Counted from the stretch's first letter, positions 1,752-38,522 are shown. The stretch: 64,000 bases of DNA from Patescibacteria group bacterium (GCA_019752815.1 JAIELQ010000007.1:40922-104921); one strand, 5' to 3'. Numbers and translations are program-made. Notes: generated by a model not told the origin, from the letters alone.

Positions 1752-3005
1752 ATGCCTAAACTAACAAAGTCCACATCAATATGGGACGTAACCGTCATTG
1801 GTGGCGGTCCGGCGGGAATGATGGCTGCCATTGAAGCCGGAGCACGTGGCAAGCGGGTTCTATTGATTGAGAAAAATGCTGGGTTAGGTAAGAAGCTGTT
1901 GATTACCGGTGGTGGTCGGTGTAATGTCACCAATAATAAACCAGTGGTGCGGGAGATGTTGAGTCAGTATAAAGAGGCCGGTAAATTTTTGTTCTCAACG
2001 TTTATGCAGTACGGAGTCAAAGAGACAATTGATTTTTTTGCACGTTATAATTTACCGTTTATCGAAGAAAATGAAGGACGTTTGTTTCCGAACACACAAA
2101 AAGCTGAATCAGTTTTTAATGTACTACAGCAAGCTTTGCAAGAGCATGCAGTTACGATTCAGACAGGTAAGAAAGTGGCAGTAATTAAAAAAGCAGGCAC
2201 CCAGTTTAGTGTGGAGTTGTCAGATGGTGAACAAGTACTAACTCAGGCTGTGGTGGTAGCAACCGGCGGCACCGCGAGGCCTGAAACTGGATCAACTGGT
2301 GAGGGATTTCAGTGGTTGGCAGAATTGGGTCACACCATACACGCGGGCAGTACCTCACTAGTTCCGATAACGGTTGCAGAAGACTGGGTAGCAGTGCTCG
2401 GTGGTGTCAGTCTGCCTGAGGCAACACTCAGTATCTACTGTAATGGTACTAAACGACATAAAGCCACTGGGAAATTACTGTTCACACATATTGGTTTGTC
2501 TGGTCCCTTGATTTTAAATCAAAGTAAATTGATTGGTGATTTGTTGGTAGAGGGAGATGTGGTAATAAAAATAGATATCACACCAACGATTGATGCCAGT
2601 GTTATCCAGGCGGAATTACTCGCACTGTTTACCGCTACACCAAATAAAAAACTTAAAAATGTGCTGGGTGAAATAATTAAACCAGCACTCGTGACACCGC
2701 TCTTGCAGTCGCTTATGCTCGATGGAGATGTTCCAGTACACAGCATTACTGCAGCCAATCGTAAACGAATTGGAGTCGTGCTTAAGGCACTGCCTCTCTC
2801 TGTTACGGGTTTGCTTGGTCCTGATAAAGCGGTTGCTACCGCCGGTGGTGTAGATTTGACTGAGGTTGATTTTAAAACGATGGAGTCCAAAATTATACCA
2901 GGGTTGTATATCATTGGAGATGTTCTTGATATCAATCGACCATCAGGGGGATATAGTCTCCAATTAACTTGGTCCACCGGTGCTGTTGCTGGTAGACATG
3001 TCTAA
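1752..3005 (+). CDS. HI0933/BaiN-family FAD/NAD(P)-binding flavoprotein (aminoacetone oxidase-like)
   Basis: N-terminal Rossmann motif DVTVIGGGPAGMMAAIEAGARGKRVLLIEKN followed by GGGRCNVTN, which is typical of the HI0933 family. The ATG at 1752 sits 4 nt after the GH3 stop. Confidence 0.8.
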   Translation: MPKLTKSTSIWDVTVIGGGPAGMMAAIEAGARGKRVLLIEKNAGLGKKLLITGGGRCNVTNNKPVVREMLSQYKEAGKFLFSTFMQYGVKETIDFFARYNLPFIEENEGRLFPNTQKAESVFNVLQQALQEHAVTIQTGKKVAVIKKAGTQFSVELSDGEQVLTQAVVVATGGTARPETGSTGEGFQWLAELGHTIHAGSTSLVPITVAEDWVAVLGGVSLPEATLSIYCNGTKRHKATGKLLFTHIGLSGPLILNQSKLIGDLLVEGDVVIKIDITPTIDASVIQAELLALFTATPNKKLKNVLGEIIKPALVTPLLQSLMLDGDVPVHSITAANRKRIGVVLKALPLSVTGLLGPDKAVATAGGVDLTEVDFKTMESKIIPGLYIIGDVLDINRPSGGYSLQLTWSTGAVAGRHV

Positions 3006-3035
3006 AAAATAGAGGTGACATCTAAAACTGGTAAG

Positions 3036-3140
3036 CTTCGTTGTTGTCTTTCAAAAAATAAATTTCAACGTACAATAAGTACGTCTCAAATTATTTTTCT
3101 CAGTCGCCTAGAATCTTACTCAGTTTTAAACGTCAAACTA
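3036..3140 (+). repeat. Family-B intergenic MITE/REP-like element (copy 1), with the cgtac-N-gtacg core hairpin
   Basis: About 75% identical to the elements at 14753-14866, 22709-22820 and 47328-47442. Shares cgttgttg...caacgtacaataagtacgtctc...gtcgcctagaatcttactc. Confidence 0.6.
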
Positions 3141-3151
3141 ACATTCAAACC

Positions 3152-3385
3152 ATGACAGAACAACCAAAAAATCCCCTACACGGAATAACTCTTAAAATGA
3201 TTTTGGAGACTCTCATTTCCGAGTATGGATTTCCAACATTAGGTACTAAAATCAACATCAAATGTTTTCAAGAAAAACCAAGTCTTAATTCGAGTCTAGT
3301 CTTTTTGCGCAAAACACCATGGGCACGGGCGAAGGTAGAAAAGCTTTATTTACAGACAGTTAAACGGAAAAAGACTGGTCAGTAG
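3152..3385 (+). CDS. VF530/DUF2132-family small protein
   Basis: 77 aa. The motifs PLHGITLKMILETL...KINIKCF...PSLNSSLVFLRKTPWARAKVE match the conserved DUF2132 pattern. Confidence 0.6.
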   Translation: MTEQPKNPLHGITLKMILETLISEYGFPTLGTKINIKCFQEKPSLNSSLVFLRKTPWARAKVEKLYLQTVKRKKTGQ

Positions 3386-3433
3386 TGTATTGTTTTCAAT
3401 AATACTACCTATTTCGTTGTATACTATAGACAT

Positions 3434-3700
3434 ATGAAATTAATCATCATTATCCAAACGCTGATTATTATTGCCGGTGCGTATTACGTATATTTACTGA
3501 GCAATCCAAAAGAAGTCATTGTTGAACCTGTGCCTGAAGCGAGTGTGCCGGTGATTGAATCTGATTCTGTTCGTGAAGGCTACACTCCACCAACCGTAAA
3601 CCCGCCCGCTGATCCCGCTACCCTCAATAGTGAAGTGACAGGGCATAGTGACGTAGGAATGGAGTACCCAATTCCTGACGAAGAAATCCAGGTTCGGTAA
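3434..3700 (+). CDS. Small N-terminally membrane-anchored hypothetical protein
   Basis: 88 aa with a hydrophobic N-terminus and a Pro/acidic tail. Followed immediately by a terminator. Confidence 0.4.
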   Translation: MKLIIIIQTLIIIAGAYYVYLLSNPKEVIVEPVPEASVPVIESDSVREGYTPPTVNPPADPATLNSEVTGHSDVGMEYPIPDEEIQVR

Positions 3701-3716
3701 TCATCCAAGTTACAAA

Positions 3717-3755
3717 CTAAAAGCACGAGACATTGTCTCGTGCTTTTAGTTTTTA
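3717..3755 (+). terminator. Rho-independent terminator
   Basis: Perfect inverted repeat aaaagcacgagaca/tgtctcgtgctttt followed by a T-run. Confidence 0.7.
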
Positions 3756-3790
3756 GTAAACGCAATGATTCTTCTAGTAAGAATTGATTA

Positions 3791-3890
3791 AAATAGAGTC
3801 AGTCCTAGGCGCACAAGGAATTTAGGTCGAGGCGTACATCTGTACGATGAGGCATAAATTTCCGCAGTGCAACAACGGAATGAACTATTT
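3791..3890 (-). repeat. Family-B MITE/REP-like element (copy 2, inverted relative to copy 1)
   Basis: The reverse complement reads ttccgttgttgcactgcggaaattt...catcgtacagatgtacgcctc...ccttgtgcgcctaggactgactc, which is collinear with the 14753-14866 copy. Confidence 0.6.
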
Positions 3891-4628
3891 TTATCGATTC
3901 GTGTAGTCTTTTTCTACGTATATAGAAACTGTCCTGCGCTTTCGGGCCTTGCCTTTCAGTACATGTTTATGTGACTTGTAAATTTTATGGACGATAAATT
4001 TTTCTGATAAAAATTCAGTGAGCGCTTCAAGTGAGTAGACGTACTCATCTACACCAATGACGGGGTGGACGTACGAACCAGTTTCCTTGCCGGGGAAGTC
4101 ACGTAATAGTCGGCGGGTATGTAAATCTTCATCTGCCAAAAAAGTCTTCATGAATAAAAATCCACCTGGAACGAGCACGCGATAAATTTCATCACGGAGG
4201 GTCTGTCGTTCCTTTTGATTTAAAAAGTGTGACGTCATCATGTCGAGCACTAATGTTTGTGAGTTGTCAGGTACATCAAGAGGTCCCGCAATACTGCGCG
4301 CGGTGTAATCTATTGCGTAGTCGGCTGAAGCTGCTTTGGCTTGGTCAATCGCAGAAACAGAAATATCATAGCCAATACCCTTCATGCCAAATTCTCGGGC
4401 GAGGAAAATTATGTTACGTCCATTGCCACACCCTACATCGAGGACAGAGGCGGTTTGCGCTAATATATCACCACGTTTTTGACGAATAATGTAGCGAGTG
4501 AATTTCTCCAAGTCTTCACTATGGTCTGACGATAGTTTTAAGTGGCTAGCTTCTTTATACTCCTTATCCCAAAAGGTAGTACCATGTGTCTTCTTTTTCT
4601 GTTTGCGTATAAAGGGTCGTTTTGCCAT
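3891..4628 (-). CDS. Class I SAM-dependent methyltransferase
   Basis: VLDVGCGNGRNIIFLA is SAM-binding motif I; LVPGGFLF is the post-II region. The likely start is MAKRPFIRKQ at 4628. Confidence 0.8.
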   Translation of the reverse strand: MAKRPFIRKQKKKTHGTTFWDKEYKEASHLKLSSDHSEDLEKFTRYIIRQKRGDILAQTASVLDVGCGNGRNIIFLAREFGMKGIGYDISVSAIDQAKAASADYAIDYTARSIAGPLDVPDNSQTLVLDMMTSHFLNQKERQTLRDEIYRVLVPGGFLFMKTFLADEDLHTRRLLRDFPGKETGSYVHPVIGVDEYVYSLEALTEFLSEKFIVHKIYKSHKHVLKGKARKRRTVSIYVEKDYTNR

Positions 4629-27749: not shown

Positions 27750-27782
27750 AACCCTGCCACCCCACGTGTGGCAGGGATTTTA
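27750..27782 (+). terminator. Rho-independent terminator
   Basis: ccctgccac-cccacg-tgtggcaggg followed by atttt. Confidence 0.7.
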
Positions 27783-27858: not shown

Positions 27859-29544
27859 TTGGGTGGGAGGAGTTTTATTACTTTTAGTCACATTATTATG
27901 TATATATCAGAAGTTCAAAGTTCAAAAACTGTCAAATTAGTGACACTTTTGACTCTTTTTGCCGTTATTATTAGCTTGTTACCTGTTTCAGCATTTGCGC
28001 AGGTGACTGAACCTGTTACCGATACAGAAGTAACTGTCGACGGAGAGAGTACATCAACTACTCCGGCAGAGCCTGTTGAACCAGTGTCATTAGTGCTCGA
28101 CCCTGAAGAAGTAGTATCTGAACCAGAAGCGACAGTAGTTGTCGAAGAAGAACCTGTTCTGAGTGCTCGGATCGCAGAGTCTATTGCTGTTGCTGATAAT
28201 GGTGAAGATCGGCCTATGAAATGTCTGGACGCTAATCTTCTAACTAATGGTTCATTTGAAGAACCAACAGTTGAGGGAGAATGGACGATCTTTGGAAGCG
28301 TCCTCGGATGGTTGTCTTCTGCTAGTGAGTTAGAAATTTGGAAGAATTTTAATGGAAATGGTGTTGATTCAGCTGCTGATGGTCAGCAAAATGCTGAATT
28401 AGATGGAAATGCACCCACAACTATTTCACAAACTTTGTCAGTAGTTCCGGGTAGTAAATACCAAGTATCTTTTGCTTTCTCACCTCGAGTCGGTCGAGAT
28501 ATGGCTGATAATGCAGTAAAAGTTAAATGGGATGGTGCAACACAAGGAACAGTGTCAGCAGATGGTTCTAGTAATAGTGGAAACGTTTGGACAAATCACT
28601 ACTTTACCGTAACTGCTGATGATGCTTCTGCGGTCGTTGAGCTTGAAGATATCGGTTCAGCGACTTCATACGGAACACTTATTGATGACGTGGAGGTATG
28701 TCTTGTAGAGCGCGCAGTGGTTGAAAAAGTAGAGGAAACAATCATTGTTACTGAAAATACAACTAATTTTGAAAACACAAACGGCTGGATGTTCAATCGC
28801 GACCTTACAACCGCTACTCCGTTTGAATTTAACACAAACGAAGCAGTGATTGGTGCTGGTGCCCTTAATGTTCTTCCAATCGGTGCTAATGCAGCTGATA
28901 AGTTTATTGCTGAATATTTCGTACTCGATAAAATCGATAACGTTATTTCATTCTCATACGACTTTAAAATTGGTGCCAGTGGTGATGATACAGATGAAGA
29001 ACAGTTCTACATGAATGTGTACGCTAACTTCGGTGAATCTAGTGCAACTAAATTCTATGACTGTCGTTACAATGTGGTGCCTACTGTTGGATCAATTGCT
29101 GGATTTACAACCGTAACGTTTGACCCAACTCAAGCATATCCAGTTACTACCCGTGGTGGTGCCAGTGCCTCCCCGTACCCTTGTCCAGCTGTGCCTGCTG
29201 ACATGAATGACCTCAGTCCGAATTCAACTTTCCGTGCTTTTGCAATTAACCTAGGAGACACATCTGCATCAGATGTTGGACTAGATGGATACTTCGATAA
29301 CGTGGTACTTGATACACCAACAAAAATCACTACCTTTGATTTCGAACCTAAGAAAATCTCTGGGAATAACCTCATTAGTGGCTGTAAATTCAACGACGCT
29401 AACGCTAACGGACTTAAAGATGAAGGTGAAGTAAATCTTTCAGGATGGGAAATTGTTCTTACTCAAGAAGACTCAGACCCACAGTACGCTGTTACTGATA
29501 AAAACGGATGTTACTCATTTGAGGTTGGATATGGTTCATACTAA
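27859..29544 (+). CDS. Secreted surface protein, N-terminal part: signal peptide, CBM4/9-like (NGSFEEP...W) beta-sandwich domain, Cna-B/SdrD-B-like domain. Ends at an in-frame TAA.
   Basis: Signal peptide, NGSFEEPTVEGEWTIFGSVLGW...AELDGN, then GCKFNDANANGLKDEGEV...CYSFEVGYGSY*. The same frame continues open into 29677..30573. Confidence 0.6.
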   Translation: MGGRSFITFSHIIMYISEVQSSKTVKLVTLLTLFAVIISLLPVSAFAQVTEPVTDTEVTVDGESTSTTPAEPVEPVSLVLDPEEVVSEPEATVVVEEEPVLSARIAESIAVADNGEDRPMKCLDANLLTNGSFEEPTVEGEWTIFGSVLGWLSSASELEIWKNFNGNGVDSAADGQQNAELDGNAPTTISQTLSVVPGSKYQVSFAFSPRVGRDMADNAVKVKWDGATQGTVSADGSSNSGNVWTNHYFTVTADDASAVVELEDIGSATSYGTLIDDVEVCLVERAVVEKVEETIIVTENTTNFENTNGWMFNRDLTTATPFEFNTNEAVIGAGALNVLPIGANAADKFIAEYFVLDKIDNVISFSYDFKIGASGDDTDEEQFYMNVYANFGESSATKFYDCRYNVVPTVGSIAGFTTVTFDPTQAYPVTTRGGASASPYPCPAVPADMNDLSPNSTFRAFAINLGDTSASDVGLDGYFDNVVLDTPTKITTFDFEPKKISGNNLISGCKFNDANANGLKDEGEVNLSGWEIVLTQEDSDPQYAVTDKNGCYSFEVGYGSY

Positions 29545-29676
29545 GTTGCTGAGACTCAACAAAAAGGTTGGGAGCAAACAGCTACCATTGGAGATGGCGC
29601 TGACGGAAACATTTGTTACATCAATTTCTACACTGAAATTGCCGCACGAAGTGCGGTTGTAGCTGAAGGTGAATCA

Positions 29677-30573
29677 ATGTACAGCGATACTGCTACGTGT
29701 GACTTTGGTAATCACGAAGTTGAAATTAACGAATGTACCTACTCAGAAAATCTCCTCGCTAATGGTAGTTTTGAAACACCATTAGTTGATCCAGAAAGTG
29801 ATGGTTGGGACATCTTTGATTCAGTAGTAGGCGGGTTGGCTTGGGTAGTTACTTGGATTAATCCAGCAGCCGAAGCTCCAGCAGTACCAAAACTAGAATT
29901 ACAAGATGGACGTCCAGCCAGTGATGGTAATCAATACGCTGAACTAGACTCAAACTATACTCAGCCAGGTGCCCCACAAATTCTTGGAGACGCACGCGTT
30001 AAAATCGCGCAAACAGTACCAACAGTAATTGGTGAAGAATATACCTTTACATTCGACCTGTCAGCTATTCCTGGTCGTCGTGGTGGTCCGGGTAATAACA
30101 AGGTAGACGTTATCATTGGTGGAGTAGTAATTGATACCAAAACTGCTGATGGACGACTTGCAACAACTACTAACTGGTCAACCTACTCATACACATTTAC
30201 TGCAACAACCTCAGCTACTGAAGTTGCTCTGGCAGATGCAGGACGATCAAATACATTCGGTACGTTTGTAGATAATGTATCTCTTGCAGGTTGTGTGCCA
30301 CAAAATGATGGTGGAGATGATGAGGGAGATGGTGGAGGAGATAATGAAACACCAACACGCCGTGGTGGTGGAGGTGGAACTCGTATTGACCGAACACCAG
30401 CTGGTGAGGTGTTGGGTGCACAAGCCACCGCTCCAACTGGAATGGTGCTTGGAGAAGCCACCTCAACCCTTCCAGTGGGCGCTCCTAATACTGGAGCCGG
30501 AGGGACTGCACAAGTCACTATTCAACTACCATCTGTAGTTGCAGTGTTGCCAAAAACACAAAAGATAAAATAA
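29677..30573 (+). CDS. Secreted surface protein, C-terminal part: second CBM4/9-like domain, Gly/Asp-rich linker, and a C-terminal sortase sorting signal (APNTG + hydrophobic + KTQKIK)
   Basis: NGSFETPLVDPESDGWDIF...AELDSN, then ...LPVGAPNTGAGGTAQVTIQLPSVVAVLPKTQKIK*. In the same frame as the upstream ORF. Confidence 0.55.
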   Translation: MYSDTATCDFGNHEVEINECTYSENLLANGSFETPLVDPESDGWDIFDSVVGGLAWVVTWINPAAEAPAVPKLELQDGRPASDGNQYAELDSNYTQPGAPQILGDARVKIAQTVPTVIGEEYTFTFDLSAIPGRRGGPGNNKVDVIIGGVVIDTKTADGRLATTTNWSTYSYTFTATTSATEVALADAGRSNTFGTFVDNVSLAGCVPQNDGGDDEGDGGGDNETPTRRGGGGGTRIDRTPAGEVLGAQATAPTGMVLGEATSTLPVGAPNTGAGGTAQVTIQLPSVVAVLPKTQKIK

Positions 30574-30575
30574 GT

Positions 30576-31211
30576 ATGTTTACTGGTTTCCAAAAAACCA
30601 GAGCATATAGCAAACGTCATTACGTTCTCGTAATGGCGTTTGCCATTGTGCTTGTTGTTGTGTGGGTTGCAGTACCCTATATCGATCGGTATGTAAATGA
30701 TGTAAATCAAGAGGTGGCAACTGAAACTATTGAGCCGGTGGTCCATAATGGTGAATTTGCCCGTTCCGCTCCTGTACGATTAGTAATTCCGTCACTTGGT
30801 ATGGATACAACGTTTGTCCAACCGCTAGGATTATTACCTGATCAAACAATTGGAGTGCCAAATAGTTATACCGAAGTCGGTTGGTACAGTGGGGGGGTGA
30901 GTCCAGGTGAGGTAGGCCCGTCGGTAATATTAGGACACGTTGATTCAGTTGACGGTCCAGCAATTTTTTATTCGTTAGGTCAGATGGAAGTGGGGGATGA
31001 AATTGAGGTAACTCGTGCTGATGGAACCATCGCAAAATTTGCCGTTACCAGAATGGAGCGTCACCCACAGTCAGATTTTCCAACCATGGATGTCTATGGA
31101 CCTACTGATACAGCCGCCTTACGCCTCGTTACCTGTTCTGGAAGTTTTGATAAAGGTGCACAACGGTATAGTCATAATTTGATTGTTTTTGCCGAGCTAA
31201 TAAAGAGTTAA
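30576..31211 (+). CDS. Sortase (class E/F-like transpeptidase)
   Basis: N-terminal TM segment, VILGHVDS (active-site His region), LRLVTCSG (TLxTC catalytic Cys) and a C-terminal Arg. The ATG lies 2 nt after the substrate gene stop. Confidence 0.75.
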   Translation: MFTGFQKTRAYSKRHYVLVMAFAIVLVVVWVAVPYIDRYVNDVNQEVATETIEPVVHNGEFARSAPVRLVIPSLGMDTTFVQPLGLLPDQTIGVPNSYTEVGWYSGGVSPGEVGPSVILGHVDSVDGPAIFYSLGQMEVGDEIEVTRADGTIAKFAVTRMERHPQSDFPTMDVYGPTDTAALRLVTCSGSFDKGAQRYSHNLIVFAELIKS

Positions 31212-31214
31212 TAC

Positions 31215-32618
31215 ATGCCCTCTTTATTAGTTTCACAACGCCAATTTTGGGAGAGTAATTTCATTTATTACACTTCAATTGTAGTCCCGGTATCATTTAA
31301 CCTGCTAGTATTTTACTTTTTGTTTTACGAAGTAGAGGGTAATCAAATTAATAGTTCGGCTGAGCTCGCTTTGTTTATTGCCAAGCTCTTTTGGCTGACG
31401 GGAGCCGTAGTTGCAGTAAGTAATATTATTGGGTTGGTGGTATTTGGAAACCCTCGTCACAATAACAATCAAGCAGTCGAGTCATTTGTTAGTAGTGGCT
31501 GGCCAAAGGCACGTCTTATTGTTGTATATGTGTCACGTGGTGATAATGCGCAGGCACTGGCTCGATCAATAGCTTCAACAGAGATACTTCTTCAAAAAAT
31601 GAATGTGCATCACCGTATTGATGTAGTAACTGACATGCCGGTAGCCGAGTTTATTTCTGGACCAGATTCTGCTGTTCGGTTCCATCTTGTGCCGGAGGGG
31701 TATGTCACACTTAATCAAGCTAAATGGAAGGCTCGGGCTCTCCATTATGTTGTAGAGCAGCATCAGCAAGATGATGATTTGTTTGATACCGATCACACAT
31801 GGGTACTACATCTCGATGAAGAGTCACAAATGACTGAAAGTGTTGTTGCTGGTATTGGTGAATTTATCAGTAATCCTGAAAATCAGAATAAAATTGGGCA
31901 GGGAGAAATTAAGTATAATGCGCACCAATATGGGTCGCACCTTTTGATTACGTGGGCGGATTCAATTCGTAGTGGGGATGATCTAGGGCGATTTAGATTC
32001 CAGTACAGTCTCTTTCGTCGTCCATTATTTGGAATGCATGGTTCGTTTATTCTCGCCCCGTTACGGATTGAGCAGCAATTTGGTTTTGATTTAGGTGGGA
32101 AAGGAAGCGTAACGGAAGACGCCTATTTTGCTCTCAAGTGTGCTGAACAAGGGGTGAAATTTGGCTGGGTAAATGGCTACATTCGTGAACAGTCACCCTA
32201 TACTATTCTGGCGTTACTTAAACAACGTCGAAGATGGTTCTCGGGTTTATTAATGTTGTCTTTTGACCGTACCATCGCTTTTAAGACTCGTTTACCATTG
32301 CTTCTCAATACAGTATTATGGTCAGTAGCTTGGATTGGACCATCAGTTACGCTCATAACTTTGTTTTTTGGTGGATATTTTCCTGTTCTGTTACTTTTAT
32401 TTGCAGGATTATTGCAAGGGTTTTATACGGCTACGTATATGGTTGGAGCAGCGCGCAATCTTGCTGATTCAGATGTTACAATGTCGTTTTCTCGCCAAGC
32501 GGTCATTTATCTAGGTTCTCTCGTCAGTGTTCAGGTTGTAAATGTTATTGAAGGATGCGCTGTATTATACGCACTCATCAGTCCGGTTAAAACATTCGAT
32601 GTAGTTAATAAAAATTAA
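31215..32618 (+). CDS. Processive family-2 glycosyltransferase (cellulose/chitin/hyaluronan synthase-like), integral membrane
   Basis: D...D, TEDAYFA (TED motif) and KQRRRWFSG (QxxRW motif), flanked by TM helices. Confidence 0.7.
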   Translation: MPSLLVSQRQFWESNFIYYTSIVVPVSFNLLVFYFLFYEVEGNQINSSAELALFIAKLFWLTGAVVAVSNIIGLVVFGNPRHNNNQAVESFVSSGWPKARLIVVYVSRGDNAQALARSIASTEILLQKMNVHHRIDVVTDMPVAEFISGPDSAVRFHLVPEGYVTLNQAKWKARALHYVVEQHQQDDDLFDTDHTWVLHLDEESQMTESVVAGIGEFISNPENQNKIGQGEIKYNAHQYGSHLLITWADSIRSGDDLGRFRFQYSLFRRPLFGMHGSFILAPLRIEQQFGFDLGGKGSVTEDAYFALKCAEQGVKFGWVNGYIREQSPYTILALLKQRRRWFSGLLMLSFDRTIAFKTRLPLLLNTVLWSVAWIGPSVTLITLFFGGYFPVLLLLFAGLLQGFYTATYMVGAARNLADSDVTMSFSRQAVIYLGSLVSVQVVNVIEGCAVLYALISPVKTFDVVNKN

Positions 32619-32641
32619 CTTGGTTTAAATGAAGATACTAG

Positions 32642-33832
32642 TTAGAACCATTGATTGCCACCAAGATGCCATACAGATACCGAAGTTATTCCTAAACTGG
32701 CCACCAAGTCTCTTTTTTGTTTTAGACTTTGTGCATCTTGATAGAAATAAACAGTCGTCCCACTTCTCCAAGTCATTTCTCCCGAACGTACATCACGTAC
32801 GGCGGTAGGATATCCTACTTTTTTTCTAATTTGTTCATGGGTGAGGATGGTCATTCGGTATGAGCCAACAGTTCCTTGGTATCCGTAAGACGGTAAACCA
32901 ATGGTTAATTTTTCTTTTGGATATTTAGTACTTGTCCAATTCACAACATTCCTAATCCAATCTAACGGAGCTACAGGCGATCCGGCTCCATAGTCATATT
33001 GGTAGTCATACGCCATAATTACCATATGATCAACTGGTAGGTTAACGAAATCATTATATCGCCATAAAAACCATTTTTCTTCAGTGGCGTTTGATACGGC
33101 TGGGCCGTCTAACATTAATTTTTTGCCTTGAGCATGAAGAGCATCGCCCAATGTTTGTACAAACATTTTGTAATTGGTGTAGGCTACTGGTGTCCAGCTA
33201 CTGAAATCCTCGAAATCTAGCTCGATACCGGTAATACCGTTGTTTACCGTAAAATCTACCAGAGTCTTTATTTCTGAGCTAGAAGCATTAAGAGCAGTTG
33301 CAAAAAATGTCTCCATGTCATTCACGCTCGCTGACGAAACAGTTGCATATTGTTCAGTTGAGTATTGTTTGAGCCGTGCGATAGTGGTGGGTGAATAGCC
33401 GTTACAACGGGTGTTTGTTGAGTCAAGTAATGTCAGGAAGCCACCGCTAATAGTAAAGAATTCAGCTTTTAGAGTATGAATTTTACGTCCATCCGCCATT
33501 TCCGTATTGGCTCCACAGGCAGGATTGCCTGGATATATCCAGGCCATAGTGCGAACTTCGTTTATTTGAGCAGCCGACGCTTGGGGGATAAATTGTGCCA
33601 GGGGACTTGTTGTAGCAGCTTGTTGTTGGTTCTTTTTGTTTCGAATCACAGCCGCTTCTTGTTCACCAATTGTTTCAGACGTGGTAGTCTCGTTTTGGAC
33701 TAATGTAATTGGAAGATCACTCTCCAGAGTAGAAACGATAGCTATTTTTGTATGAGTCACTGAGAGTATAGTCATGATAAGGAGTGCGAACGCACCAGTA
33801 GCTAATCCAGCTAATAAAATTTTTGTATGCAT
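32642..33832 (-). CDS. GH18-family glycoside hydrolase (chitinase / SleL-YaaH-like), membrane-anchored
   Basis: GITGIELDFEDF is a variant of the DxxDxDxE motif with the catalytic Glu retained. MAYDYQYD is the MxYD motif. N-terminal TM segment; likely start MHTKILL. Confidence 0.6.
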   Translation of the reverse strand: MHTKILLAGLATGAFALLIMTILSVTHTKIAIVSTLESDLPITLVQNETTTSETIGEQEAAVIRNKKNQQQAATTSPLAQFIPQASAAQINEVRTMAWIYPGNPACGANTEMADGRKIHTLKAEFFTISGGFLTLLDSTNTRCNGYSPTTIARLKQYSTEQYATVSSASVNDMETFFATALNASSSEIKTLVDFTVNNGITGIELDFEDFSSWTPVAYTNYKMFVQTLGDALHAQGKKLMLDGPAVSNATEEKWFLWRYNDFVNLPVDHMVIMAYDYQYDYGAGSPVAPLDWIRNVVNWTSTKYPKEKLTIGLPSYGYQGTVGSYRMTILTHEQIRKKVGYPTAVRDVRSGEMTWRSGTTVYFYQDAQSLKQKRDLVASLGITSVSVWHLGGNQWF

Positions 33833-33854
33833 ACCCTCACTATACACTTTTTTA

Positions 33855-35228
33855 CTACTTTTGTTCAATAAATACCCCTTTGCGCTCCCATTTTTGCCAG
33901 ACGAGCTCTTGTTTTCTGATGTATCCCCATAATGCTTTAAATAAAGCATTAGTTTCAACAAATGTACTCACATAGAACAATAACCAACCAATCGGAGCTA
34001 GGAGTAAGAAGGGAAGAGTTGCTTCTCGGTGTTTATCAAATGCAACCTGAACCAAGAACATTGAACTTACAACCACGATGCCGGAAATAAATGAGGTGAA
34101 GTCACCAGTCATAAATGAGAAGATATAAAGGAATGTCAGGAACAAAATCTCTAATGACAGTTGAAGTTCTCCAATAATAGCTAACGGTAATATAAACCAC
34201 GAAAGTAATTTATTATGTTCTTTTTTAAAACTACAAAACATACCACGGTGTTCAGCAAAGGTTTCAAATCGGCCTCGTTTCCAGCGCAACCGTTGTTTCA
34301 TGAGGCCGCTCAGTGTAACAGCACCTTCTGTATAGACTAAAGCGTCAGGAGCATAGGCAATACGCATGCCGTGAGCCTGTATACGAACAGATAACTCAAT
34401 ATCCTCGGTGATGTTAGTGGTGCTATAAGGACCAATTTTATCAAAAATCTCACGCCGAAATGCTCCCGCTGCACCGCCAATGATGTAGATAGTATTTACC
34501 AATGATTCTGCTTTTTTAAAGTAAAAAGAAAATAAAAACTCTAAATACTGCACGACTCCAATTATAGTGTCGGTATTACCAATCCGAACGTTGCCAACGG
34601 CTGCCATAACGGTAGGATCTTGGAAATACTTAACAAAATTTCCAACAGTTTCTGGCGGGACGTAACAATCGGTATCAATTGATAGAATGATGTCCCCAGT
34701 AGCTAAATTGAGTCCATTATTTAACGCGTGACCTTTGCCCTGAGCTCCTTCATAGCTATAGATAACATCAATGGTCTGCTTAAGTGATCGGTCACGAGTT
34801 AGTTCATATCTTTCAATTAGGTCACGCACGTTCTTACCCGTATTATCTTTTGAGGCATTATCTATTACCAATATTTCCATATTAGTATAGGTGCTTTTTA
34901 ACAGGGCTTCGACAGTCGTGATGATGCCGTTTTCTTCATTCCAAGCCGGAACAATGACGCTCACACGAGGATTATAGAGGCTCCCTTGTCTGGCTTTTTT
35001 TAGTATACGATTACGATGAGCAACGCGGATTTCATTCCACGGACTTAACATCATGTATATAAAGTATTTAGTGAGAAGAATAGAGGCAAATATTATGATT
35101 ATTGACCGTAAAACGGCAAAATTTTCTGTTTCTTGGCGTTCAACTAAAAATACAGAACTTAAAATAGCCCCTAAAATTATATATAAAGCAGTGTAGACTA
35201 ATATTTTGTTGCTAGGAAAAAATTTCAT
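33855..35228 (-). CDS. Processive family-2 glycosyltransferase (PgaC/IcaA/NodC-like N-acetylglucosaminyltransferase)
   Basis: SVIVPAWNEE, DNASKD, SIDTDCY, GAAGAFRREIF, TEDIELSVR and KQRLRWKRG (QxxRW), with N- and C-terminal TM helices. Confidence 0.8.
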   Translation of the reverse strand: MKFFPSNKILVYTALYIILGAILSSVFLVERQETENFAVLRSIIIIFASILLTKYFIYMMLSPWNEIRVAHRNRILKKARQGSLYNPRVSVIVPAWNEENGIITTVEALLKSTYTNMEILVIDNASKDNTGKNVRDLIERYELTRDRSLKQTIDVIYSYEGAQGKGHALNNGLNLATGDIILSIDTDCYVPPETVGNFVKYFQDPTVMAAVGNVRIGNTDTIIGVVQYLEFLFSFYFKKAESLVNTIYIIGGAAGAFRREIFDKIGPYSTTNITEDIELSVRIQAHGMRIAYAPDALVYTEGAVTLSGLMKQRLRWKRGRFETFAEHRGMFCSFKKEHNKLLSWFILPLAIIGELQLSLEILFLTFLYIFSFMTGDFTSFISGIVVVSSMFLVQVAFDKHREATLPFLLLAPIGWLLFYVSTFVETNALFKALWGYIRKQELVWQKWERKGVFIEQK

Positions 35229-35971: not shown

Positions 35972-37432
35972 ATGAATATATTTAGCGTAGAGGGAGGTTC
36001 AGTAGGGAGACTGGTGACAGGCTTGAGTTTATTAGCTTTGATTATGAGTGCTTTTCCGGTGTCTTTTGCTACGGCGGAAGGTGAAGAAGTTGCTCCAGTT
36101 ACTGATACGTCAGTCGTTAGTAGTTTGGTAGAAGAGACTGAGCCAGGAGATTTGTGTGACAACATGCTAGGTGTTCAATTGGAGGTGCCAACAGGTTGGA
36201 TGGCAGATGGAAGTTCATGTTATCTGGTTGAACCATCAGAGCCTACACTAGAAACAATCGAAGTTTGCAAATATACCTATGGGGAGGGGGAATCATATAT
36301 TCCTGTTGCCGGATGGATAATGTTTGTCACAAATATTGATCCAAATGAAATTATTGCTGCTGGTCCAGATGATGTGCCTGAGGGGTATATCTATGAAGTT
36401 GTCACTGATGATACAGGTTGTGTGACCCAGTCTGTTAATTCTGAAAATGGTCCGTGGTATGTATTTGAGGATATTGAAGACGGTTGGTACCAATCAGATG
36501 TTGATGTGGTAGGTGGTTACGCAACTGAAAGTGAGGGAGATAATTTCTGTGTCTTTTTTGATGATGAGATAATTTCTTCTGAATTGTCGCGCAGTGGTGA
36601 ATATAGTTATAGTTGTGATTTTTATAATGTGGATGATCGCGAAGAGGTAACTGGCTATAAGTGGAATGATGAAAACAACAATGGTGTTAAAGATGATTCA
36701 GAAGTAGGGGTTCAAGGTTGGACTATTACAGCTTCAGATAACACTAAAGCTGGATATTCTCCAGTTTCGGCAGTAACAGATGCCAATGGGTATTATTCAA
36801 TGATGCTTCCTAGTGATGGTAATTGGGTAATTACTGAAGAGTTGCGTTCTGGTTGGACACAAACTGCGGTATATGAAAACGGTTACAAACTAACAGAGGA
36901 AACGGAAGAGGGTGGCTCAATTGCAGAATGTTCACTTAATCTACGTTCAAAATACACAAAGGTTGCAGTTTTGGATGAAGTTACAGCGCCCGAACTCTAT
37001 AATCGTTGTGATTTCCTTAATTATCAAGAGCCGCGTCGTAGTGGTGGCAGCAGTTCGGGAACTCGCGTCAGAGAGCGTGCGACCCCACAGTCGTTAGTGC
37101 TAGGAGCAGCAACTGGCACACCAGCGTGTGGAATGTACCTCCAAGACTACATGCGTATGGGTAACGCTGCCTCTACAACCCAAGTAACAAAACTCCAAGT
37201 ATTCCTTAATGCAGTGGGCATTACTGCACCATTAACTGGAATCTTTGATGCCGGGACTGACGCAGCGGTACGAGCATTTCAAATGCAGTACAAACCAGAA
37301 GTTCTTACACCGTGGTATCTTGCCAAGTTAGTGCCACATGAGAATTCAACTGGTTGGGTGTACCAATTAACACGATGGAAAATCAATAACATTGTGTGCC
37401 CAGGCAGTGAAGCGTATCCGGTTCTAAACTAA
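35972..37432 (+). CDS. Secreted protein with a Cna-B/SdrD-B-like domain and a C-terminal peptidoglycan-binding (PGBD-like) domain
   Basis: Signal peptide; YKWNDENNNGVKDDSEVGVQGWTI...DANGYYSMMLP (SdrD B-like); TQVTKLQVFLNAVGI...DAAVRAFQMQY (PG_binding_1-like). Confidence 0.6.
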   Translation: MNIFSVEGGSVGRLVTGLSLLALIMSAFPVSFATAEGEEVAPVTDTSVVSSLVEETEPGDLCDNMLGVQLEVPTGWMADGSSCYLVEPSEPTLETIEVCKYTYGEGESYIPVAGWIMFVTNIDPNEIIAAGPDDVPEGYIYEVVTDDTGCVTQSVNSENGPWYVFEDIEDGWYQSDVDVVGGYATESEGDNFCVFFDDEIISSELSRSGEYSYSCDFYNVDDREEVTGYKWNDENNNGVKDDSEVGVQGWTITASDNTKAGYSPVSAVTDANGYYSMMLPSDGNWVITEELRSGWTQTAVYENGYKLTEETEEGGSIAECSLNLRSKYTKVAVLDEVTAPELYNRCDFLNYQEPRRSGGSSSGTRVRERATPQSLVLGAATGTPACGMYLQDYMRMGNAASTTQVTKLQVFLNAVGITAPLTGIFDAGTDAAVRAFQMQYKPEVLTPWYLAKLVPHENSTGWVYQLTRWKINNIVCPGSEAYPVLN

Positions 37433-37541: not shown

Positions 37542-38522
37542 ATGCCCAAAAAGGTTTTGGAAAAAAAGAATATACCAAGTAACGTTGTGGTCTACCAGAC
37601 AAAGTCGGGTGCTTTGGAGTTGCGTGGGGATTTTAAGCATGAGATGGTTTGGGCTACGCAAGCACAGATTGCAGATGTTTTTGAAATTGATCGTACAGTT
37701 GCAACAAAGCACATTAACAACACACTTAGGTCGAGTGAAGTTGATGAAAATAACAATGTGCAAAAAATGCACATTGCTAACTCAAAAAAACCAATCAGTT
37801 TGTACTCGTTGGATATTATTTTAGCTGTTGGGTACCGTACAAACTCAGCAAAAGCGATTGAATTTCGCCAATGGGCTACTAAAACACTCAGACAACACAT
37901 TGTGTCTGGCTACACTATCAATCGGGCTCGAATAGCTAAAAACTATGATGAATTCATGGCTACAGTGGCGAAACTGCAAGCAGTTCTGCCTAATAATGCT
38001 GAAATCGATTCTAAAACCACACTTGATTTGGTTAGATTGTTTGCGGATACGTGGTTCTCACTTGATGCGTATGATAAGGAGTCATTAGCACCTTCAAAAG
38101 TTAATAAAAAGAAATTAAAACTAACGGCCAAAGAGTTGCAAGATGGTATTGTGGTTCTCAAAACTGAGTTAATGAGAAAAGGCGAAGCAACCAATAACTT
38201 TGCTCAAGAGCGCAATCATGAGGCGTTGGAAGGAATAGTTGGTAACGTGATGCAAAGTTTTGGTGGAAACGAGCTGTATCCTAGTATTCAGTCAAAAGCA
38301 GCTCACTTACTCTACTTTATAATCAAAAATCACCCGTTTGTTGATGGTAACAAACGTTCCGGTGCGTATGCGTTTGTATGGTTCTTGCAGAAAACAAAAG
38401 TGCTTAACACTAACACTCTTACCCCAACCGCCCTTACTGCTCTCACTATTCTTATTGCAGAAAGTAATCCTGTTGATAAAGAGAAAATCATAGCCTTGGT
38501 CACTACTTTGATTTCAGGATAA
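37542..38522 (+). CDS. RhuM-family protein with a C-terminal Fic/Doc domain (Doc-type HPFxDGNKR motif)
   Basis: N-terminal KSGALELRGDFKHEMVWATQAQIADVFEIDRTVATKHI matches the Virulence_RhuM pattern. C-terminal NHPFVDGNKRSGAYAF is the Doc/Fic active-site motif. Confidence 0.75.
   Translation: MPKKVLEKKNIPSNVVVYQTKSGALELRGDFKHEMVWATQAQIADVFEIDRTVATKHINNTLRSSEVDENNNVQKMHIANSKKPISLYSLDIILAVGYRTNSAKAIEFRQWATKTLRQHIVSGYTINRARIAKNYDEFMATVAKLQAVLPNNAEIDSKTTLDLVRLFADTWFSLDAYDKESLAPSKVNKKKLKLTAKELQDGIVVLKTELMRKGEATNNFAQERNHEALEGIVGNVMQSFGGNELYPSIQSKAAHLLYFIIKNHPFVDGNKRSGAYAFVWFLQKTKVLNTNTLTPTALTALTILIAESNPVDKEKIIALVTTLISG

Follow-up and report, generated by a model that had tools for sequence, protein, structure and literature searches.

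A 64,000-nt stretch of DNA from a Patescibacteria group bacterium (JAIELQ010000007.1:40922-104921, assembly GCA_019752815.1; hereafter the window), which lies on a contig of 190 kb, carries what we regard, taking the whole explanation together, as probably a two-gene surface-display operon of a bacterium of the candidate phyla radiation (CPR). The first gene encodes a large surface protein that bears a sorting signal at its C-terminus, and the second a class F sortase, and gene neighbourhood suggests that the two form a transpeptidase pair acting on the motif APNTG. To judge from the tails compared below, APNTG is a local spelling of a signal common to the whole sortase class. The system is of an already-known kind, a class F sortase with a GVDTG-type signal, with the window tail scoring below the cut-off of the model for that signal.

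The two genes are separated by 2 nt, the substrate stop codon (TAA) occupying 30571-30573 and the sortase ATG starting at 30576. On the plus strand, positions 27859-30573 make up one frame that is continuous apart from a single TAA at 29542-29544, exactly as an earlier reading made without database searches (the sequence-only reading) had described it. Two full-length orthologues from other metagenomes, P0001 (881 aa, 76% identical) and P0002 (878 aa, 75% identical), align with the substrate over its whole length. In the three orthologous loci the sorting motif is invariant and the 2-nt junction between the genes is identical. The public NCBI annotation lists two 'DUF642 domain-containing proteins', MBY0538333.1 (548 aa) and MBY0538334.1 (298 aa, from ATG 29677), which are the halves of one interrupted gene; the sortase is entered as MBY0538335.1, 'class F sortase'. 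Comparison was made with loci gathered using the sortase as bait, 80 of them in reference genomes and 80 on metagenome contigs, in which sortases and N-termini were located by tblastn-anchored and loose pattern scans.

Analysis of the downstream gene product placed it in class F, with 175.2 bits against the NF033748 model (E 6.8e-52, cut-off 166) and 83.2 bits against Pfam Sortase. The models for the other classes tested (GN, D and E) gave at most 22 bits, class E reaching 20.9, and the earlier 'class E/F-like' label is thereby reduced to its class F part. The AlphaFold2 model of the enzyme (mean predicted local distance difference test score, pLDDT, 81.8) shows a sortase barrel preceded by an N-terminal helix (residues 3-42), and it matches solved class E, C, A and D sortases with a probability of 1.0. 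The closest structures are those of class E (9m4u from Thermobifida fusca, 9iok and 5cuw) and class C, at 18-25% identity (24-25% for class E). No class F structure was found in the PDB, where a sequence search returned only SrtD from Clostridium perfringens (E 0.001). Homologues of the enzyme are abundant in Patescibacteria (Kaiserbacteria, Paceibacteria and metagenome-assembled genomes labelled Saccharibacteria) and in Actinomycetota.

The tail of the window protein, ...LPVGAPNTGAGGTAQVTIQLPSVVAVLPKTQKIK, has the three parts that were first described for it: a motif (PVGAPNTGAGG), a hydrophobic stretch (TAQVTIQLPSVVAVLP) and a basic end (KTQKIK) before the stop codon. The peptide stretches around the motif read ...STLPVGAPNTGAGGT... 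and STLPVGAPNTGAGGTA. Membership of the LPXTG or LAXTG signals was rejected, since TIGR01167 gave no match to the tail at E values up to 10 and position 1 of the motif is an alanine; the claim that the signal is neither of the two is thus borne out. None of the Pfam models matched this tail, and no further PNTG-type, LPXTG or LAXTG tail was found in the window.

Analysis of the collected loci revealed a consistent association between the motif and the sortase. In the 80 genome loci, the motif occurs within the last 60 residues of 85 of 1974 open reading frames (ORFs) of at least 150 aa, and 61 of these 85 are encoded immediately upstream of the sortase, most of the others lying farther off within actinomycete clusters. 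Of the 66 loci that could be evaluated in the independent metagenome set, 52 had the strict motif and most of the remaining 14 a near-match; LPXTG was seen in none. Across 146 loci of Patescibacteria and Actinomycetota, almost all of the genes just upstream of the sortase encode an end made up of P-x-G-[A/G]-[P/A]-x-[T/A]-G-x-G-G, a hydrophobic stretch and a basic tail; about 130 tails adjacent to class F sortases were examined for LPXTG, and none had it. The consensus of the Patescibacterial tails (n=29) is [S/T]-[V/I]-[V/M/L]-P-x-G-A-[P19/A9]-[N20/D4]-[T19/A9]-G-A-G-G and that of the Actinomycetota P-x-G-[A/G]-[P/A/V]-x-T-G-x-G-[G/S], followed in both phyla by the hydrophobic stretch and an Arg/Lys tail. 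The adjacency of a sortase and a dedicated substrate, noted at first for the 2-nt spacing in the window, recurs in more than 110 independent loci and is not a matter of chance.

To avoid dependence on a regular expression, a hidden Markov model (HMM) was built from the actinomycete tails only and searched against 667 six-frame ORF tails. The Patescibacterial tails encoded upstream of sortases took the top 23 places of the 667, and the window tail ranked eighth with 21.0 bits (E 8.6e-6). A model of this signal already exists in NCBIfam (NF058571, 'GVDTG_CTERM', cut-off 29). It was passed by actinomycete tails (41.3, 41.0, 33.5 and 31.8 bits) and by one Patescibacterial tail (32.3 bits), while other related tails gave 27.6, 26.8, 24.3, 22.9 and 16.3 bits, and the current cut-off misses most of the Patescibacterial ones. 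A literature search found no publication describing a GVDTG-type signal, the matches to 'GVDTG' being irrelevant.

Because class F sortases of both phyla have this kind of tail encoded ahead of them, the specificity would belong to the sortase class and not to a lineage, as had been supposed at first. A specificity peculiar to this lineage would account for the A-P-N found at most positions in Patescibacteria, for the replacement of Thr by Ala in about a third of their tails, for the VLGEQVSVVP linker that precedes the motif and for the position of most of these tails under the NF058571 cut-off. We nevertheless consider it unlikely, since dozens of Actinomycetota loci have the core P-x-G-[A/G]-[P/A]-x-T-G-x-G-[G/S] ahead of a class F sortase and the cross-phylum HMM recognises the Patescibacterial tails. 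The idea that the tail is no sortase substrate at all, acting either as a plain membrane anchor or as the target of a GlyGly-CTERM/rhombosortase-like protease at G-x-G-G, must also be weighed. Cleavage of the tail is itself deduced from sequence, the G-x-G-G before the hydrophobic segment is as well conserved as T-G, and some actinomycete proteins carry the motif at their extreme C-terminus with no hydrophobic segment. The tail nevertheless adjoins a class F sortase in more than 110 loci of two phyla, the frames often abutting or overlapping, and the neighbourhoods hold no other conserved candidate for a processing enzyme, which makes this explanation highly improbable.

Some observations weigh against a class-wide signal cleaved between Thr and Gly by this enzyme. 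First, the window tail reaches only 17.6 bits on NF058571 (E 0.0035), below the cut-off, and only its motif part is aligned, over profile positions 2-18 of 44. Secondly, 9 of 29 Patescibacterial tails have Ala in the place of Thr, which leaves the T/G cleavage register insecure; the invariant upstream P-x-G could be the recognised element instead. Thirdly, among 120 homologues (P0121-P0240), 84 have Arg, 22 have Lys and 14 have some other residue at the site ten positions after the catalytic cysteine, where the catalytic arginine would be expected. An arginine four positions before the cysteine (LRLxTC) is present in 119 of the 120, and the Y-S-H-N that follows the cysteine is invariant; the active site of class F may be organised unlike that of class A-E sortases. 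Finally, SrtF from Cutibacterium (Propionibacterium) acnes, the only 'class F' sortase studied biochemically, is reported as a housekeeping enzyme recognising LPXTG (Di Girolamo et al. 2019, as cited in PMC8225981 and PMC13251363).

Two side observations concern the tails and their loci. In one actinomycete subfamily of proteins, about 450-550 aa long and with a conserved ...DAYA..DY..A...Y..M..., the C-terminus is ...LPVGGSQTGGGSTATWRR and no hydrophobic segment follows the motif; these tails would be a sortase-type signal lacking the membrane-retention helix. Members of the subfamily are the ORFs upstream of the sortase in loci L040, L046, L058, L064, L066, L077, L112-L115, L123-L128, L134-L138, L143, L149, L152, L155, L158, L159 and L162. 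In addition, the contig PWWA01000121.1 (locus L020), labelled 'Candidatus Woesearchaeota archaeon', encodes a Patescibacteria-type class F sortase and a protein with a GGAATGAGG tail, with a 15-bp hairpin after it; the archaeal label is probably a binning error.

The internal stop of the substrate gene is best read as a C-to-T nonsense mutation or as a consensus error, two of the possibilities raised by the sequence-only reading, and not as recoding. At the stop column the DNA of both P0001 and P0002 has CAA, which reduces the difference to a single C-to-T transition in the window. A TAA thus stands where the intact orthologues have a sense codon, and homology continues beyond it (81% identity to the orthologues over the 330 codons 3' of the stop), the pattern of a nonsense pseudogene. 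The stop falls inside a Cna-B/SdrD-B-like domain, as had been proposed: with the stop in place the SdrD_B match ends at it with 28.7 bits, under the cut-off of 29.7, and with the glutamine restored it reaches 36.9 bits over residues 498-563, residue 549 included. The ratio of non-synonymous to synonymous substitution rates (dN/dS) in the 330 codons 3' of the stop is 0.10-0.12, and between P0001 and P0002, both intact, it is 0.104. The absence of decay over the 342 codons downstream points to a lesion that is either recent or artefactual. Two considerations temper this argument: synonymous divergence (dS) between the orthologues exceeds 1, so that a brief period of relaxed selection would escape dN/dS, and sequence alone would not separate a real mutation from a consensus error.

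Recoding or reassignment of TAA was rejected, as TAA is the main terminator of the window (30 of 38 long ORFs, with TAG in 5 and TGA in 3), the orthologues have CAA and there is no second conserved gene with an internal stop. Other gene-internal stops were sought in the conserved genes of the 64-kb window and none was found. A second interrupted gene at TAG 39845 was considered and rejected, the flanks encoding unrelated proteins, a CAP-domain protein and an S24 peptidase.

It is a serious possibility, though one we lean away from, that the TAA arose as an artefact of sequencing or assembly, or that the consensus of the metagenome-assembled genome took up a minority allele, the substrate gene being intact in the population. 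The single C-to-T difference from the CAA of both orthologues, a downstream dN/dS equal to that of the intact pair and the fact that this is the sole broken gene seen in 64 kb all favour it. On the other side, the deposited NCBI assembly has the stop, the Prokaryotic Genome Annotation Pipeline called two proteins from it, and nonsense alleles of surface-protein genes are common in natural populations. A functional stop, allowing programmed read-through or the regulated production of a truncated secreted isoform, is scarcely credible. The N-terminal fragment does keep the signal peptide and two lectin-like domains, and a Shine-Dalgarno-like AAGGTG lies 5 nt before ATG 29677. However, the orthologues are uninterrupted and have CAA at this codon, the break falls midway through a beta-sandwich domain, UAA leaks less than the other bacterial stops, and there is no conserved recoding signal in a window where TAA is the normal stop. 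The earlier suggestion of a regulated, truncated secreted form is therefore unsupported; moreover, the second half, read from ATG 29677, has no signal peptide.

If the nonsense mutation is real, the cell would secrete an unanchored 548-aa fragment ending in half a beta-sandwich, while the 298-aa C-terminal fragment, perhaps made from ATG 29677, would be cytoplasmic, devoid of a signal peptide and unsortable. The sortase ATG has no Shine-Dalgarno sequence (AAAAGATAAAATAAGTATG) and probably relies on translational coupling; the stop, if real, may also lower synthesis of the sortase.

A terminator scan flagged as terminator-like a 15-bp stem at 30610-30643, in sortase codons 12-22, which begins about 40 nt after the substrate stop. 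Folding of a 56-nt region around it gave -30.2 kcal/mol (z -8). The hairpin is nearly identical in nucleotides in the two orthologous loci, though dS in the adjacent gene exceeds 1. At the equivalent position, about 310-335 nt before the LGH codon, a hairpin is present in 21 of 27 Patescibacterial loci, and these hairpins rank between first and twelfth of the 2200-4200 windows of each locus; equivalents were recorded in L001-L021, L030, L032, L039 and L083-L102. The core starts 28-59 nt 3' of the substrate stop and 36-45 nt 3' of the sortase ATG. Its 3' flank is U-rich (UUUGCCGUUUUUGG type) but interrupted. Pairing of the outer 5 bp of the stem was discarded as unsupported (39-54% paired in ungapped alignments, owing to register shifts), and a core of 10-15 bp was kept.

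Covariation supports the core. The score was 0.396 in the training set and 0.426 in an independent set of 16 sequences, against 0.20-0.22 for shuffled alignments, none of 500 of which reached it, and at most 0.18 for slid partners. Pairing held in 157 of the 160 core cells of the independent set, with AU, GC, CG and UA swaps. The stem is kept by compensatory changes that include paired non-synonymous ones, its arms encoding the conserved residues K-R-H-Y and V-M-A-F-A, of which the variants RHY/VMA, RRY/VAT and RHH/VVA occur. A covariance model of the hairpin matched only sortase 5' ends, in low-GC loci, and scored 54.7 bits on the plus strand against 36.2 bits on the minus strand, with G-U pairs on the sense strand. 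It had no match in Actinomycetota loci, weak evidence of absence given that the model contains coding signal. In Rfam the hairpin had no match at gathering thresholds, and relaxing the E value to 10 added noise alone.

The hairpin might be a by-product of coding, if basic residues followed by hydrophobic ones simply use complementary codons. Versions randomised over synonymous codons still fold, at mean energies of -14 to -20 kcal/mol, which indicates that the amino-acid pattern contributes to the structure. However, in each of the 25 genes tested the fold loses stability on randomisation (z -1.9 to -6.0), the stem survives paired non-synonymous changes such as RHY/VMA to RRY/VAT, covariation exceeds that of every shuffle in both the training and the independent sets, and loci with an intergenic spacer have a hairpin in the spacer instead. 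We judge a coding by-product quite improbable. Of 15 low-GC loci with no match to the model, 10 have a top-ranked hairpin situated 0-45 nt 3' of the substrate stop; several of these hairpins lie in an intergenic spacer and are classic U-tract terminators. These operons, we conclude, generally carry a hairpin immediately 3' of the substrate gene, and where the two genes abut it has become part of the sortase coding sequence. The hairpin would most likely serve as a leaky terminator or attenuator, or as a 3'-end stabiliser, favouring the substrate over the sortase.

Features of the substrate-sortase operon, with positions counted from the first nucleotide of the window
Feature	Position	Strand	Description	Basis
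Substrate gene	27898..30573	+	891-codon surface protein, one internal stop	Orthologues P0001 and P0002 align end to end
Predicted Sec signal peptide	27898..27999	+	aa 1-34, MYISEVQSSKTVKLVTLLTLFAVIISLLPVSAFA followed by Q (...SAFA, then Q)	Read from sequence, kept in orthologues
First DUF642 / choice-of-anchor-C-like lectin domain	28237..28698	+	aa 114-267	PF04862, 61 bits over two stretches
Middle domain	28729..29358	+	aa 278-487 (210 aa); predicted beta-jelly roll like that of carbohydrate-binding modules
SdrD B-like (CnaB-type) stalk domain	29389..29586	+	Split by the stop	Pfam
Premature TAA	29542..29544	+	Codon 549, within the stalk domain	Orthologous codon CAA (Gln) in both full-length relatives
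Second DUF642 / choice-of-anchor-C-like domain	29749..30282	+		TIGR04362, 57.3 bits (below 120); PF04862, 33.3 bits in fragment
Sorting motif P-V-G-A-P-N-T-G-A-G-G	30472..30504	+	APNTG at 30481-30495	Invariant in three orthologues
Hydrophobic segment and basic tail	30505..30570	+	TAQVTIQLPSVVAVLP, then KTQKIK	Hydropathy, basic-residue count
Class F sortase gene	30576..31211	+	211 aa, N-terminal membrane helix	NF033748, Pfam Sortase, alignment, AlphaFold2 model
RNA hairpin	30601..30654	+	Sortase codons 9-27; stem 30610-30624 / 30629-30643, loop UUCU
Covarying 10-bp core of the hairpin	30615-30624 / 30629-30638	+		Covariation analysis
His121	30936-30938	+	In LGHVD	Invariant in 31 homologues
Cys187	31134-31136	+	In LRLVTCSG	Invariant in 31 homologues

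The coordinates of the operon are collected in the table. The likely true start of the substrate gene is the ATG at 27898, in agreement with the N-termini of the orthologues and with MBY0538333.1. A strong Shine-Dalgarno sequence, GGGAGGAG (27866-27873), lies 24 nt 5' of this ATG, and an in-frame ATT at 27877 follows it after only some 5 nt; this ATT may be a non-canonical true start of the gene.

Both NGSFE...W domains of the substrate belong to Pfam DUF642 (PF04862, two copies, 61 bits against a cut-off of 27). The first scored 59.4 bits on TIGR04362, below its cut-off of 120, and the matches to CBM_4_9 were likewise sub-threshold; the initial description of these domains as 'CBM4/9-like', that is, resembling carbohydrate-binding modules (CBM), is fair at the level of the fold. 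The middle domain is covered by no Pfam or NCBIfam model over aa 278-487. Its AlphaFold2 model (pLDDT 94.8) matched best, among PDB structures, CBM4-2, CBM16 and CBM11, and these matches are weak (E about 3e-5, template modelling score 0.4-0.5). It is common to more than 100 other Patescibacterial surface proteins, at 58-73% identity and with differing C-terminal anchors, and is predicted from the model to be a CPR-specific CBM-like fold. A Gly/Asp-rich linker with two VLG repeats separates the second DUF642 domain from the sorting signal. The three lectin-like beta-sandwich domains and the SdrD-B stalk suggest, as the most economical reading, a carbohydrate-binding adhesin anchored to the wall.

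Upstream of other Patescibacterial class F sortases the passenger domains vary (DUF642, SdrD_B, SpaA-like, LTD and InlB-repeat) while the tail and the sortase are constant. Related passengers also carry other anchors: P0011, P0012 and P0028 end in canonical LPxTG tails, and others in a PG_binding_1 module or a WWW-type transmembrane anchor. This mixture fits the 'choice-of-anchor' behaviour of DUF642 proteins. The neighbouring SdrD_B protein of the window (35972-37432, plus strand) ends in PG_binding_1 and a conserved ...TGWVYQLTRWKINNIVCPGSEAYP module, as do many proteins having the middle domain, a combination that seems to give the same passenger domains another, non-covalent means of attachment to the wall. 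The sequence (E/Q)VLG(E/D/A), often repeated, lies a few residues before both LPxTG- and GAPNTG-type motifs (P0011, P0012, P0028, P0108 and most Patescibacterial class F tails); it may be a conserved linker or processing element common to the two anchor types.

Around the operon, the region downstream of the sortase (31215-35228) encodes a glycosyltransferase family 2 (GT2) protein, a glycoside hydrolase family 18 (GH18) protein on the minus strand and a GT2/chitin-synthase-like protein, also on the minus strand. The orthologous loci encode a polysaccharide deacetylase and GH18 (L081, 3465-6358; L082, 3416-6312). These polysaccharide genes may constitute a module for surface glycans that is connected with the lectin-like substrate. 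The interval separating the substrate gene from the gene upstream of it holds a perfect 9-bp GC-rich palindrome (CCCTGCCAC...GTGGCAGGG; 27752-27776), which was flagged as terminator-like on both strands. Just downstream of the surface-protein cluster lies a gene for a RhuM/Fic-domain protein (37542-38522, plus strand).

From these features we infer the following course of events. The substrate precursor of about 890 aa would be secreted through the Sec pathway, and its hydrophobic segment and basic tail would hold the exported protein in the membrane, by analogy with other sortases. Cys187 of the sortase would cleave within the motif, most likely after the Thr of APNTG, after which an amine of a peptidoglycan precursor would resolve the acyl-enzyme and the lectin-rich protein would be anchored in the wall, to act there as an adhesin. 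The hairpin after the substrate stop would ensure that far more substrate than sortase is made.

Reviews describe the function of class F sortases as unclear, and a quadruple knock-out made in Actinoplanes had no phenotype (PMC11231552, PMC8225981, PMC13251363). More than half of CPR genomes have a sortase (PMC6744442). The literature found for CPR or Patescibacteria together with sortases contains passing mentions only, with no description of what is sorted. The neighbourhood data provide a testable cognate signal for class F sortases and a one-enzyme, one-substrate arrangement that extends across two phyla, CPR included. Lectin-rich proteins anchored to the wall could plausibly serve episymbiotic CPR bacteria in attaching to their host. 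Less expected by-products are a lectin-like CPR domain covered by no model and the conserved coding-region hairpin, which is a clean case of RNA structure constraining protein sequence and a candidate for RNA family databases. We put forward tentatively, with a confidence falling just short of even, a broader claim joining two parts: that class F sortases recognise P-x-G-[A/G]-[P/A]-x-[T/A]-G-x-G-G, unlike the biochemically defined motifs and with a Thr that is dispensable in Patescibacteria, and that their operons are tuned by an undescribed covarying RNA element in the first 25 sortase codons, whose stem dictates the protein sequence 'RHY..VMAFA' rather than the reverse.

Among known systems, the nearest are the Actinomycetota pairs defined by NF058571 and NF033748. 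They share with the window operon the core G-[A/G]-[P/A/V]-x-T-G-x-G-G, the hydrophobic stretch, the basic tail and a signal encoded directly upstream of the class F sortase. Compared with their GVDTG tails, the Patescibacterial ones differ by the A-P-N of the motif, by an Ala in place of Thr in about a third of cases, by shorter hydrophobic segments and by the VLGEQVSVVP linker. The published view of class F enzymes as LPXTG users rests on the single C. acnes enzyme (PMC8225981). SrtF resembles the window sortase in its assignment to class F in the literature, its membrane anchor and its Cys/His transpeptidase chemistry, but the window enzyme is paired one-to-one with an adjacent non-LPXTG substrate.

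The closest solved structures are those of class E, represented by SrtE1 and SrtE2 of Streptomyces coelicolor and SrtE of T. fusca, which use an LAXTG signal. Class E enzymes tolerate Ala for Pro at position 2 of the motif, a variation also seen in the class F tails (P19/A9 of 29). In the class F tails, by contrast, position 1 is Ala/Gly and not Leu, a conserved G-x-G-G follows and an invariant P-x-G precedes. SrtB of Clostridioides difficile, which recognises (S/P)PXTG signals, offers a precedent for x-P-x-T-G with no Leu at position 1; it differs in belonging to class B, in lacking the flanking P-x-G and G-x-G-G, and in having no one-to-one operon. Regarding the hairpin, stem-loops within operons are known to set differential expression, as in the intercistronic hairpins of Rhodobacter puf and Escherichia coli malEFG. 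These resemble the window element in that a stable hairpin follows a highly expressed structural gene and precedes an enzyme gene, whereas the window hairpin lies within the downstream coding sequence, where both of its arms encode conserved amino acids.

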